Sequence record: OR757454.1
Direction: 5' to 3' (one strand)
Origin: Escherichia phage BYEP02
DNA: 64,000 bases
Made by a program: the position numbers and the translations under genes. This document shows, piece after piece, positions 25,977-36,484 of the stretch; position 1 is the first letter of the stretch; the number at the start of each line of letters is the position of its first letter. The notes below the pieces were generated by a model, which was not told where the DNA came from, ran no database searches, and was given only the letters and a program-made list of their open reading frames with translations.

Positions 25977-26341
25977 ATGAAAACTTTCAAAGAGTTTACT
26001 ACAAAAACTACCCCGGTTTCTACTATTACTGAAGCTACTCTTACTTCTGAAGTTATTAAAGCAAATAAAGGACGAGAAGGTAAACCAATGATTAGTTTGG
26101 TTGATGGCGAAGAAATCAAAGGTACTGTTTACCTAGGTGATGGGTGGTCTGCTAAAAAGGATGGTGCTACAATCTGGTTGATGGCGAAGAAATCAAAGGT
26201 ACTGTTTACCTAGGTGATGGGTGGTCTGCTAAAAAGGATGGTGCTACAATCGTTATCTCTCCTGCTGAAGAAACTGCGTTGTTTAAAGCTAAACACATTT
26301 CTGCGGCACATCTCAAGATTATTGCTAAAAATCTTTTGTAA
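25977..26341 (+). CDS. ipI: Internal head protein (IPI-like, capsid-targeting sequence at N-terminus); frameshifted by 77-bp duplication 26099-26252
   Basis: MKTFKEFTTKT... N-terminus typical of T-even internal proteins; ~95 codons after removing one copy; position adjacent to 57B as in T4. Confidence 0.7.
26099..26252. repeat. 77-bp tandem duplication inside the ipI-like gene
   Basis: ggttgatggcgaagaaatcaaaggtactgtttacctaggtgatgggtgg... twice. Confidence 0.9.
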
Positions 26342-26359
26342 TAAATATTTCACAAAGTT

Positions 26360-26389
26360 GTTTACATAGGGTTTTAGTTGTGATACTAT
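26360..26389 (+). promoter_or_regulatory. T4 early-type promoter (-35 GTTTAC, -10 TACTAT)
   Basis: cacaaagttGTTTACatagggttttagttgtgaTACTATtacc. Confidence 0.55.
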
Positions 26390-26417
26390 TACCCTATCAA
26401 CTACTGAGGAGAATAAA

Positions 26418-26680
26418 ATGAAACGTTGTGAATTAATTCGAAATGTTGCTATTGCAATTTCTGCTTCTGCTTTTAGTTTTTCAATGTTTGTTGGATTTAT
26501 ATGTGGATTATTAACTACAGCAGAAAATGTGTTTTCACTTGTAGTAGCATTTTTAATTGGTTTAATGTTGGATTTATATGTGGATTATTAACTACAGCAG
26601 AAAATGTGTTTTCACTTGTAGTAGCATTTTTAATTGGTTTAATTGCTGTCGTTATGGATAAAATTTCTAAAGGTGAATAG
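26418..26680 (+). CDS. Small hydrophobic protein; frameshifted by 77-bp duplication 26490-26643
   Basis: MKRCELIRNVAIAISASAFSFSMFVGFICGLLTTAENVFSLVVAFLIGLI... Confidence 0.5.
26490..26643. repeat. 77-bp tandem duplication inside small membrane-protein gene
   Basis: gttggatttatatgtggattattaactacagcagaaaatgtgttttcac... twice. Confidence 0.9.
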
Positions 26681-26681
26681 A

Positions 26682-27065
26682 ATGTATAAAGTGTACGCGG
26701 ATTATCAGGCTAATCCATCTGAAAAGCCAGGTTGTCAAATTGGATGGGCTCATGATACTTTGCTTGAAGCAGTAGATGCTGCTCAAAAATTAGGATATAA
26801 ATATGTAGAGATTGTTCAACTACCATCAGGAACAGTTATTACTCTTGAAGAGTTCAATAACATTAAACCAAACTTTTTACTTTTTGCAGGTGATAATTAT
26901 TATCCTCGTGGTGGATATGCTGATTTAATCGCGAAAGCCGCTACTGAAGATGAACTTCGTGATATTATCAAAGAAAATGAAAACAAACCGATGTATGGTT
27001 CTAATCGCTTTGATTGGTGGCAAATTGTAAATGCCCATACTCATACTATTGTTGATGAAGGTTGA
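26682..27065 (+). CDS. Hypothetical protein (127 aa)
   Basis: MYKVYADYQANPSEKPGCQIGWAHDTLLEAVDAAQKLGYKYVEIVQLPSG...; ORF 26643..27065. Confidence 0.55.
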   Translation: MYKVYADYQANPSEKPGCQIGWAHDTLLEAVDAAQKLGYKYVEIVQLPSGTVITLEEFNNIKPNFLLFAGDNYYPRGGYADLIAKAATEDELRDIIKENENKPMYGSNRFDWWQIVNAHTHTIVDEG

Positions 27066-27355
27066 TAATGATTCTTTATGCTAAAGTATCATCCATTGAA
27101 AATGGATATAAATATGATCAAGAAGCAGTTAAAGCCTTGATTGATGATTATGGCATTTTAACATGTTTTGAAGTTGAAAAGGTTTATGTTGACCGTTCAT
27201 CTTCTCAAGTTAAATTAGTGAAGGAAGACCGTAAATTTAATACAGTAAATTTTGATTTCTTTATTGAAACAGAAAAAGGTCCTCTTGAATATGATATTTT
27301 CAAGAATCCTTTGGGTCTTGAATGCATCGTAAATATGTATTATCATAAATGGTAA
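27062..27355 (+). CDS. Hypothetical protein (97 aa)
   Basis: ORF MIMILYAKVSSIENGYKYDQEAVKALIDDYGILTCFEVEKVYVDR...; start overlaps upstream stop. Confidence 0.5.
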   Translation: MIMILYAKVSSIENGYKYDQEAVKALIDDYGILTCFEVEKVYVDRSSSQVKLVKEDRKFNTVNFDFFIETEKGPLEYDIFKNPLGLECIVNMYYHKW

Positions 27356-27507
27356 ATATGCTTTAAGAATTATTTGTTATTATTAACTCATATCGCACTG
27401 ATTAATACCCTCTATCATCAAGGGTTCTTTAAATATGCTTTAAGAATTATTTGTTATTATTAACTCATACCGCACTGATTAATACCCTCTATCATCAAGG
27501 GTTCTTG
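27354..27507. repeat. 77-bp tandem duplication in the intergenic region upstream of the HNH endonuclease gene
   Basis: aaatatgctttaagaattatttgttattattaactcata(t/c)cgcactgattaataccc... twice. Confidence 0.9.
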
Positions 27508-27542
27508 TTTGAGAGCCTTTGTTAATAATTGGGAATCATATT

Positions 27543-28151
27543 ATGGATACTAAATTAGCTGAAATTTTTGAAGGAAAACATCCAAATTTTAGTACAGGAA
27601 AGCTGAAAGATAAAATAATAAAAGAAAATATTTTTCCATATGAGTGTGCAATTTGTAAAATTTCAAAATGGCAAAATAAGCATATTGTTCTGCAATTAGA
27701 CCATATTGACGGAAATAACAAAAATCATCTTAAATCAAATTTAAGATTATTATGTCCAAATTGCCATTCGCAAACTGATACTTTTGCTGGTAAAAATATT
27801 AAAAATAATAAAAAGCGTTATAATGTTAGTGATGAAGAAATTTTAAACGCATTATTAAATTCTGCTACTATATCATCTGCAATTACTTCATTAGGTTTAA
27901 GTAAAGGCGGAAACTATAAAAGATTCATTAAAATTGCTAATGATAATAAATTATATCATTTACTGGTAAATATTAATGAAAACATTTTAACTGATGAAAT
28001 TTACGAAGAATTAGTTAAAATTGATTATTCTAAATTTGGATGGGTTAGTAAAGCTGCTAAAATAATAGGTATAAGCCCACAAAAAGCTAGAAAATGGATA
28101 GAACGAAAGTGTCCAGAATTGATAGAACAATCTTTTTCACGTAATAAATAA
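27543..28151 (+). mobile_element. Free-standing HNH homing endonuclease gene immediately upstream of the tRNA cluster
   Basis: MDTKLAEIFEGK... with HNH motif DHIDGNNKNHLKSNLRLLCPNCH and C-terminal helix-turn-helix-like region. Confidence 0.7.
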
Positions 28152-34645: not shown

Positions 34646-34648
34646 TTT

Positions 34649-34669
34649 TATAAATACCTTCTATAAATA
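34649..34669 (+). promoter_or_regulatory. Two tandem T4-type late promoters (TATAAATA x2) upstream of lysozyme gene e
   Basis: ttTATAAATAccttcTATAAATActtaggaggtattATG. Confidence 0.7.
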
Positions 34670-34682
34670 CTTAGGAGGTATT

Positions 34683-35171
34683 ATGAATATATTTGAAATG
34701 TTACGTATAGATGAAGGTCTTAGACTTAAAATCTATAAAGACACAGAAGGTTATTACACTATTGGCATTGGTCATTTGCTTACTAAAAGTCCATCACTAA
34801 GCGTTGCTAAATCTGAATTAGATAAAGCTATTGGGCGTAATTGCAATGGTGTAATTACAAAAGACGAGGCTGAAAAACTCTTTAATCAGGATGTTGATGC
34901 TGCTGTTCGCGGAATTCTGAGAAATGCTAAATTAAAACCAGTTTATGATTCTCTTGATGCTGTTCGCCGCTGCGCATTGATTAATATGGTTTTCCAAATG
35001 GGAGAAACCGGCGTAGCAGGATTTACTAATTCTTTACGTATGCTTCAACAAAAACGCTGGGATGAAGCAGCAGTAAATCTAGCCCAATCTAAATGGTATC
35101 GTCAGACACCTAATCGCGCGAAACGCGTAATCTCAACATTTAAAACAGGAACTTGGAAAGCGTATATATGA
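34683..35171 (+). CDS. e: Endolysin (T4 lysozyme, gene e), intact 162 aa
   Basis: [39 protein letters not shown]...; near-identical to T4 lysozyme with a few substitutions. Confidence 0.95.
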
Positions 35172-35526
35172 AAACATATAGTGAATTTTTATCAGAATCT
35201 ATTCTTAACGAAGCTACTGACACATTTGCAACTAAGCTAGGTGCAGCTTTGGTTGAAGCGAATTTTTATCAGAATCTATTCTTAACGAAGCTACTGACAC
35301 ATTTGCAACTAAGCTAGGTGCAGCTTTGGTTGAAGCTGAAAGTCTATTAGCACGTATTTCTGAACTTGCTAGTAAGATAGATACTCGCAAATTTGAACGT
35401 ACCAGCGATATCGTTAAGCTTGAAGCCTTGTTGCGTATGTGCGATAAACCAGAAGAAATCGCTAAGAACGGCTCGCTAATGAAACAACGTCTTGAAAAAT
35501 ATATTTCAGGCGCTTCAGAAAAATAG
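35168..35526 (+). CDS. Internal head protein (IPII/IPIII-like, CTS leader); frameshifted by 77-bp duplication 35183-35336
   Basis: [93 protein letters not shown]. Confidence 0.6.
35183..35336. repeat. 77-bp tandem duplication inside internal-protein gene
   Basis: gaatttttatcagaatctattcttaacgaagctactgacacatttgcaac... twice. Confidence 0.9.
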
Positions 35527-35557
35527 TGTTTACTTCCTCCAAGGACTTTGATACTAT
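35527..35557 (+). promoter_or_regulatory. T4 early-type promoter for denV
   Basis: GTTTACttcctccaaggactttgaTACTATacat. Confidence 0.6.
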
Positions 35558-35584
35558 ACATTCATCAACTACTTGGAGGAAATT

Positions 35585-36001
35585 ATGACTCGTATCAATT
35601 TAACACTTGTTTCTGAACTGACCGACCAACATCTTATGGCTGAGTATCGTGAATTGCCGCGTGTTTTTGGTATAGTTCGTAAACATGTGGCAAATGGTAA
35701 GCGGGTTAAAGATTTTAAAATATCTTCCGAGTTTATTTTAGGCTCTGGTCATGTTAAGTTCTTTTACGATAAGTTAGAATTTTTGCGAAAGCGTCAATCA
35801 GACATTATAACGGAATGCTTAAAACGTGGGTTTAGTATAAAAGATACTGAAGTTCCTGACATCAGCGATATTCCAGCAGAATGGAAAAATGATTATAATC
35901 CATGCAAATCAGCTATTAAATTGAGTCAACAACGACTCGATGAAAAAATTTTAATGAAGCCACACTGGTACAAGTATTACGGCAAAAATATTTACATTTA
36001 A
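35585..36001 (+). CDS. denV: Endonuclease V, pyrimidine-dimer DNA glycosylase DenV (intact)
   Basis: [71 protein letters not shown]... Confidence 0.9.
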
Positions 36002-36010
36002 AGGAAACAT

Positions 36011-36484
36011 ATGAAAACATATCAAGAATTTATCACTGAAGCAGCTATTAATTCTCAAATTATTGCTGAATCTTTTACTGATCTTTTGAAATTTAAAAAA
36101 GGTCAAAAAATTACTGCTGTATTGGATGATGGTACAGAAGTTGAGATGGATGTACAGGGATATAATTATGCAGTAGATGGAAAACTGTATAATAAATCCC
36201 ATGCTAAATTTGATTCATTTGACGACTTTGTTAATACAGTTGAAGATGAAAAAACTCGTAGATCAATTTCAACTGGTGATGCTAAGGTTCTTATGGCACA
36301 CGGTCATGAACGTATTCGCGCTAAACAGAATAAAATGGGTGAAGATAATTTCGCATTAGTTGGTTATCAATCTGGTAAACAAACTTATGGCTATCAGCGT
36401 ACTGCTACCATGTATAATAAAAATGGTAAAATCGCTTTCGTGAATAGTAAAGGTTCTATTCAGTACGTCAAATCATTCAAATAA
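36011..36484 (+). CDS. Internal head protein-like (CTS leader MKTYQEFITEA), 157 aa
   Basis: N-terminus MKTYQEFITEAAINSQ; basic protein immediately downstream of denV. Confidence 0.6.
   Translation: MKTYQEFITEAAINSQIIAESFTDLLKFKKGQKITAVLDDGTEVEMDVQGYNYAVDGKLYNKSHAKFDSFDDFVNTVEDEKTRRSISTGDAKVLMAHGHERIRAKQNKMGEDNFALVGYQSGKQTYGYQRTATMYNKNGKIAFVNSKGSIQYVKSFK

Follow-up and report, generated by a model that had tools for sequence, protein, structure and literature searches.

A window of 64,000 nucleotides from Escherichia phage BYEP02 (sequence record OR757454.1) contains four dispersed open reading frames (ORFs) whose products begin with a common short leader; each is named here after the position of its first nucleotide in the window (25977, 30090, 35168 and 36011). 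With a probability of roughly 0.7, all four encode leader-packaged internal head proteins of the bacteriophage T4 type. Diverse, leader-tagged and injected anti-restriction proteins are an established concept, and three of the four genes are already-known members of the system: ORF 25977 is assigned to T4 IPI, ORF 36011 to T2 Ip4 and ORF 35168 to a paralogue of Ip5. As far as sequence can tell, only the family of ORF 30090 is new, at a third locus, with earlier mention in the literature of 1994 and 2007-2008 being possible. Taken alone, ORF 30090 probably also encodes a leader-packaged internal protein.

Leader motif and proposed packaging route

Translation of the window in six frames yields four instances of the pattern MK[TS][YF]x[EQ]F, each on the + strand and at the start of an ORF (25977, 30090, 35168 and 36011), and every one of these ORFs is preceded by a Shine-Dalgarno sequence of the AGGAAA or GGAAA type. 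This count compares with 0.013 occurrences expected from amino-acid frequencies and with none in 300 shuffles; a looser form of the leader pattern brought no extra candidates from the window. The initial annotation had reported a shared leader on these four ORFs, and both the starts and the departure from chance are confirmed.

The leaders were also taken to be T4 capsid-targeting sequences (CTSs), and this reading is correct. Mutagenesis of T4 IPIII traced targeting to residues 4 and 7 and processing by gp21 to residues 8 and 10 (PMC9026906), and the first 10 residues of IPIII suffice to package foreign proteins such as green fluorescent protein (GFP) and beta-galactosidase (PMC9026906). The consensus is M-K-T/S-(Y/F)-x-E-F-(I/L)-x-E, of which Y/F4 and F7 are kept in all four ORFs. 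Y4, F7, L/I8 and E10 are all present in ORFs 30090, 35168 and 36011, and ORF 25977 has an IPI-type leader of 19 residues. At the sequence level, (L/I)-x-E cleavage sites (marked by a slash) are found as ITE/A at 19 in ORF 25977, LNE/A at 10 and 15 in ORF 30090, LSE/S at 10 and LNE/A at 15 in ORF 35168, and ITE/A at 10 and IAE/S at 20 in ORF 36011.

Beyond the leader, BLASTP from residue 21 to the end detected no pair with E < 0.07 among the four ORFs or between them and T4 IPII or IPIII, in line with the earlier view that the bodies are unrelated. The sole match to a T4 body is that of ORF 25977 to IPI. The same body-only search found no match of ORFs 30090, 35168 and 36011 to IPII or IPIII at E < 0.3, and these three belong to separate families.

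In the proposed route, the CTS, with its aromatic residue 4 and Phe 7, would attach the protein to the prohead's scaffolding core. The gp21 prohead protease would then cut the leader at (L/I)-x-E: the residue before the cut would be E19 in IPI, and E10 and/or E15 (or E20) in the other three. The mature internal proteins would stay in the head with the DNA, to be ejected with it into the cell. The closely related phage slur14 encodes a portal, gp67/68-like proteins, a head maturation protease and a scaffold, genes that the window does not contain. Given the leader rules derived from IPIII, the residues kept here and the protease and scaffold of slur14, we infer that all four proteins are loaded, trimmed and ejected. 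Packaging and ejection are established for IPI. The argument is strongest for Ip4 and the Ip5-like protein, members of families that carry an internal head or virion protein annotation; for the 30090 protein it is reasonably strong. Packaging, cleavage, injection and anti-defence activity are thus predicted properties of ORFs 30090, 35168 and 36011.

The 30090 gene and its family

ORF 30090 (30090..30563, + strand) encodes a CTS-bearing protein of 157 residues from an unnamed family (phrog_2280; RB32ORF132c). Behind the leader, MKSYAQFLNE/AVLNE/A (30090-30134, +), come a helical N-domain, a Lys/Ala/Pro-rich linker (GKPAPKADPKAAQEK) and a C-domain in the form of a helical hairpin. The isoelectric point (pI) of the protein, 9.4, is comparable to those of T4 IPI-III. 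An AlphaFold2 model built on a 10-sequence alignment is all-helical with two domains (predicted local distance difference test, pLDDT, 76; predicted template-modelling score, pTM, 0.45).

The ORF is a genuine gene under purifying selection. The ratio of non-synonymous to synonymous divergence (dN/dS) is 0.04-0.27 over all comparisons; against RB51, dS reaches 0.8 with dN at most 0.04, and the N-domain shows 18 synonymous and 0 non-synonymous changes. By tblastn, 511 phage records were matched, and the ORF is intact in 469 phage records at a coverage of at least 80%. Spurious ORFs do occur around the structured RNA genes rnaC and rnaD, which ORF 30090 adjoins (29834-30076 is an example), and the ORF, or the four-fold leader motif itself, might on that ground be put down to chance or to non-coding sequence. 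The excess of motifs over expectation and the strong purifying selection already refute this explanation, leaving it a negligible probability; the intact ORF in so many phages also speaks against it.

A copy of the T4 late-promoter consensus, TATAAATA, lies at 30046..30053 (+), 44 nt upstream of the ATG at 30090. The same motif is found at the same 44-nt spacing in front of the homologue in Klebsiella phage KpV477 (Jiaodavirus) and also upstream of the slur14 gene, and a one-mismatch form, AATAAATA, stands at the same place upstream of the homologue in Mosigvirus SHSML-52-1.

Promoter and gene are bracketed by a 36-bp imperfect direct repeat (30013-30048 and 30568-30603, 32 of 36 positions aligned). 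Each copy contains the same terminator hairpin, located by a terminator scan at 30016..30044 (+), downstream of rnaC, and again at 30571..30599 (+). A further copy of the hairpin at 29935-29958 belongs to one of the assembly-junction duplications described below. T4 has a single hairpin and no 30090 gene, and the sequence past its hairpin matches that past the second copy in the window; T2, T6 and RB9 also lack the gene. For these reasons the unit looks like a cassette gained or lost through recombination between the repeats. The GenBank record of RB51 already notes 'flanked by 34 bp imperfect direct repeat'. The slot, between rnaC and e.8, constitutes a third locus outside the 'two distinct loci' published for ip genes (PMC12373910).

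Relatives of the 30090 protein were found by tblastn in Tevenvirinae infecting Escherichia, Shigella, Yersinia, Klebsiella, Serratia, Cronobacter, Enterobacter and Erwinia, and in Tequatrovirus, Mosigvirus and Jiaodavirus the gene sits in one and the same slot, past the tRNA cluster. Phages with the gene include RB51, AR1, Bas42/AndreasVesalius and slur14. Among 1.8 billion cluster representatives, searched first with a word index and then exhaustively with a hidden Markov model (HMM), only 13 belong to the family. The product is called hypothetical in 60 of the 60 records listed across the ranking of the 511 matches. Within three clusters at 90% identity, the lone differing name among the members read is the 'Internal head protein' of Klebsiella phage KPKp (UniRef). 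The phrog_2280 entry is of 'unknown function', and no family in Pfam, NCBIfam or PADLOC corresponds to the protein. Phage Kha5h (NC_054905, approximately 4990-5460) has an intact homologue with the same promoter and leader and no coding sequence in the RefSeq record. In KpV477 (2495-2731) the homologue has only 78 residues, which take in leader, N-domain and the beginning of the linker, against 177 in other members of Jiaodavirus; it may be either a natural truncation or a sequencing frameshift.

All full-length relatives found among these cluster representatives, down to approximately 30% identity, keep an aromatic residue at position 4, F7 and L/V8 in the leader. Each also has, by residue 9-15, an [L/I/M/F]xE site and, further on, the Lys/Ala/Pro-rich linker. 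The N-domain is helical, with GKYSY and AWKS motifs, and the helical C-domain is of one of two types. Since the leader is kept where body identity has fallen to about 30%, it can be argued to be functional. This bears on a second alternative, in which the 30090 product would be made late, stay in the cytoplasm and never enter the head, and its leader-like N-terminus would be a relic of ip recombination or of a shared translation-initiation region. Such an origin would suit a gene that is hypothetical in all records listed and that is found at neither of the two published ip loci (PMC12373910), and also a leader whose position 6 is Q rather than the consensus E. A relic would, however, have decayed, whereas both leader and cleavage site persist in distant relatives; all four experimentally important leader residues are present, and a 10-residue CTS is enough to package the unrelated GFP and beta-galactosidase (PMC9026906). 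An unpackaged protein is quite improbable.

The deviation at position 6 is one of several observations that weigh against the packaging and injection of the four proteins as a group or of 30090 in particular. The 30090 family has no members in T2, T4 or T6, the phages whose internal proteins were biochemically characterised, and no report of it in virion proteomes was found in the literature. Foldseek searches with the 30090 model returned no PDB entry with E < 0.7 and only its own family in BFVD. With a pI of 5.5, the product of ORF 35168 is acidic, whereas the classical internal proteins are basic, and ORFs 25977 and 36011 have no TATAAATA within 400 nt upstream.

There are three or more diverged alleles of the N-domain (30135-30323), among them a window/RB51 type, an RPN226/B1.1 type and a Mosigvirus type, and their recombination is independent of the C-terminal part. 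Between alleles, dN is 0.21-0.36 in the N-domain and 0.03-0.05 in the C-terminal part. In the comparison with B1.1, dS stands at 1.9 for the N-domain against 0.04 for the C-terminal part; the comparison with RPN226 gives the converse of that with B1.1. Positive selection on the N-domain was considered and rejected, as dN/dS does not exceed 0.27; the pattern is one of allele exchange by recombination.

No mention of RB32ORF132c was found in the literature covered, from which Repoila 1994, Bair 2007 and Rifat 2008 are absent, so an earlier listing is possible. The reviews of T4-like genomes that were consulted do not discuss internal proteins.

IPI, Ip4, the Ip5 paralogue and their genomic setting

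The ipI gene (25977..26341, +) encodes the internal protein I precursor of 95 residues and is interrupted by an apparently artefactual 77-bp copy at 26175-26251. The leader of 19 residues, MKTFKEFTTKTTPVSTITE, is encoded at 25977-26033 (+), with predicted cleavage after ITE. The Pfam family IPI_T4 (PF11634) is matched over the full length of the domain (E=7e-54), residues 20-95 are identical to IPI* (PDB 2JUB) at 76 of 76 positions, and the restored protein is 97.9% identical to T4 IPI. As in T4, the gene lies between 57B and trna.4, and it has the same type of 19-residue leader and the same 76 mature residues. It differs from T4 in two leader substitutions (TTKTT here, TSTTT in T4) and in being broken by the duplication. 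IPI/IPI* inhibits GmrSD, a type IV restriction enzyme, of E. coli CT596, an activity that ORF 25977 would share by identity.

Ip4, of 157 residues, is encoded at 36011..36484 (+), directly downstream of denV. Its leader reads MKTYQEFITE/AAINSQIIAE/S, the first ten residues being those of T2 Ip4, to which the protein is 99.4% identical. Pfam DUF7412 (PF24183) is matched over the full length (E=1e-95, 318 bits against a cut-off of 27), the protein falls into phrog_3155 ('internal virion protein'), and its counterpart is annotated ipIV in Kha5h. In T2 and RB9, ip4 directly follows e, whereas in the window the Ip5-like gene and denV stand between them. The initial annotation had put forward ORF 30090 and possibly ORF 36011 as candidate new effectors; of the two, only 30090 came without an internal-protein annotation, and 36011 is not new. 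Ip genes beyond Ip1-3 have been on record since 1994, when 'at least 10' Ips beyond those of T4 were described (Repoila et al., cited in PMC12373910).

The Ip5-like internal head protein, of 93 residues, is encoded at 35168..35526 (+), again interrupted by an apparently artefactual 77-bp copy (35260-35336). Past residue 10 its leader continues as /SILNE/A. It belongs to phrog_3499 ('internal head protein', E=1e-46) and is 48% identical to T2 Ip5 over 84 residues. Copies with 100% identity in Kha5h, UFV13 and others carry the annotation internal head protein, as such copies often do. Ip5 of T2, T6 and RB phages is likewise a phrog_3499 protein with a CTS, but it occupies the ipI locus, and its leader is of the long Ip5/IPI type; ORF 35168 lies in the e-denV locus and has a short, 10-residue type of leader on an acidic protein. 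The e-denV position is held in T4 by IPII and IPIII, which resemble the window proteins in their CTS leader, small size and dispensability and which are inhibitors of GmrSD-ECOR21 and GmrSD-ECOR17, respectively (PMC12373910). Neither ipII nor ipIII was found in the window phage by BLASTP. Correspondence to the T4 internal proteins, as first suggested from position, thus stands for ORF 25977 as IPI and gives way at ORF 35168 to an Ip5 paralogue. The start codon of ORF 35168 overlaps the stop codon of the lysozyme gene e (ATGA, 35168-35171), and this overlap suggests translational coupling to e, a late gene with two upstream copies of TATAAATA (34649 and 34662).

Over the region 25900-36600, slur14 and slur03, both Tequatrovirus phages of Escherichia, show 98.9% identity at 100% length coverage, and more than 1,200 T4-like phage records align at lower identity; the source of the window is accordingly placed by sequence in Tequatrovirus, near slur14. 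The gene order is that of T4 in reverse orientation: gene 1 (deoxynucleoside monophosphate kinase), 57A, 57B, ipI, trna.4, an HNH endonuclease, ten tRNAs, rnaD, rnaC, e.8 to e.2, nudE, e, denV and vs.8. The HNH endonuclease ORF (27519-28151) is directly upstream of the tRNA cluster (28158-29256), which comprises Leu, Gly, Pro, Ser, Thr, Met, Tyr, Asn, His and Arg. The T4 cluster differs in having segB inside it, in including Gln and Ile and in lacking Met, Tyr, Asn and His. BLAST to T4 places rnaD at 29625-29739 and rnaC at 29746-29884. No Rfam family reports either RNA at its gathering threshold, and near the 30090 cassette Rfam reports only tRNAs. The 80-residue ORF at 29834-30076, which shares its sequence with the 3′ end of rnaC and with the terminator region beyond it, is not a gene, and its internal peptide repeat derives from a junction duplication.

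Aligned to slur14, the window forms a chain of collinear blocks in which neighbours overlap by approximately 77 bp. A direct search of the 64 kb found 17 exact 77-bp tandem duplications and approximately 50 when up to 8 mismatches were allowed, together about 3.85 kb; examples are 437-590, 2042-2195, 26098-26251, 35183-35336 and 55966-56119. Because of their fixed length and irregular spacing, they are apparently assembly artefacts, namely untrimmed unitig overlaps of a de Bruijn graph with k=77. Since 77 is not divisible by 3, every such duplication shifts the frame of the gene it hits, and 57B, ipI, the trna.4-like gene, nudE, the Ip5-like gene and vs.8 are among those affected; spurious repeated peptides also appear in ORF lists. 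In ipI, the exact duplication 26098-26174 = 26175-26251 cuts ORF 25977 short, to 78 residues. In the Ip5-like gene, 35183-35259 = 35260-35336 (also exact) cuts ORF 35168 to 49 residues from its ATG, within a 54-residue ORF from an upstream TTG. Deletion of the second copies restores 95 and 93 residues, respectively, the lengths annotated in slur14. The assembly is therefore corrupted, and gene calls made on it are frameshifted throughout.

Candidate function of the 30090 protein

Injected internal proteins that counter host defences have direct precedents. Ip1, Ip2 and Ip3 are inhibitors of GmrSD type IV restriction enzymes, a different one in each case (PMC12373910), and IPIII is required on ECOR17 (PMC9391042). 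Bas37_0260, a CTS-bearing protein from the ipI locus of phage Bas37, inhibits McrBC (bioRxiv 10.1101/2025.11.20.689424) and so provides a precedent of a non-T4 CTS protein acting on type IV restriction. The suggestion in the initial annotation that the leader-tagged proteins are injected anti-defence effectors agrees with these reports. By analogy, Ip4, the Ip5-like protein and the 30090 protein are candidates for inhibiting nuclease defences that act early. Searches with PADLOC, NCBIfam and predicted folds gave no information on a role as restriction inhibitor.

For ORF 30090, the proposed sequence of events would begin with late transcription from its own TATAAATA, followed by packaging via the leader and trimming to approximately 142-147 residues, with a predicted mature N-terminus at A11 (AVLNEASSTEIQAVAK) or A16 (ASSTEIQAVAK). 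The Lys/Ala/Pro-rich linker may then hold the protein on the DNA. Once injected, the protein would contact a host factor through its variable N-domain, and a nuclease-type defence that acts early is the most plausible target. An anti-defence role drawn in this way from its better-known counterparts is tentative, with odds somewhat short of even.

A packaged 30090 protein might instead do its work inside the head, as a counter-ion of the DNA or as an aid to head assembly or ejection. The character of the linker is kept in every family member, and lysines of internal proteins contact DNA phosphates (PMC3012670). The wide range of genera contrasts with the patchy occurrence of the known anti-restriction Ips, and loss of IPIII slows head assembly and lowers burst size (PMC9026906). 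Moreover, Ip1-3 are narrow inhibitors linked to hydroxymethylcytosine (hmC), and the breadth of the 30090 family could better fit a general DNA-associated role, a point that counts against the anti-defence reading. On the other side, the protein is dispensable (T2, T4, T6 and RB9 do without it) and its cassette can be lost through recombination between the flanking repeats; diverged, exchangeable N-domain alleles are more typical of a host-interaction module; and IPIII itself proved to be a GmrSD inhibitor (PMC12373910). A role confined to the head is unlikely on this balance. Because of the wide genus range and the basic linker, a DNA-associated, non-defence role is nonetheless a serious rival to anti-defence activity.

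The genera in which the 30090 family occurs differ in DNA modification. A more specific proposal, speculative and rather doubtful, is that the family is an unrecognised pan-Tevenvirinae injected protein whose N-domain alleles each neutralise a different variant of an early-acting defence. Given the spread over these genera, that defence would not be one tied to glucosyl-hmC DNA, and the arms race of the Ips would extend beyond GmrSD.

As a system, the four genes largely rediscover what was known: T-even phages were said in 2010 to carry diverse defence-countering internal proteins with only the CTS in common (PMC3012670), and the count of 'at least 10' Ips, as that report has been cited, dates from 1994. 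The new leader-tagged family at the third locus is a different matter. Since Ips have recently been shown to be injected, subtype-specific inhibitors, it is a ready-made candidate anti-defence effector. Flagging it would improve the annotation of many therapeutic T4-like phages and add one more candidate to host-range screens.

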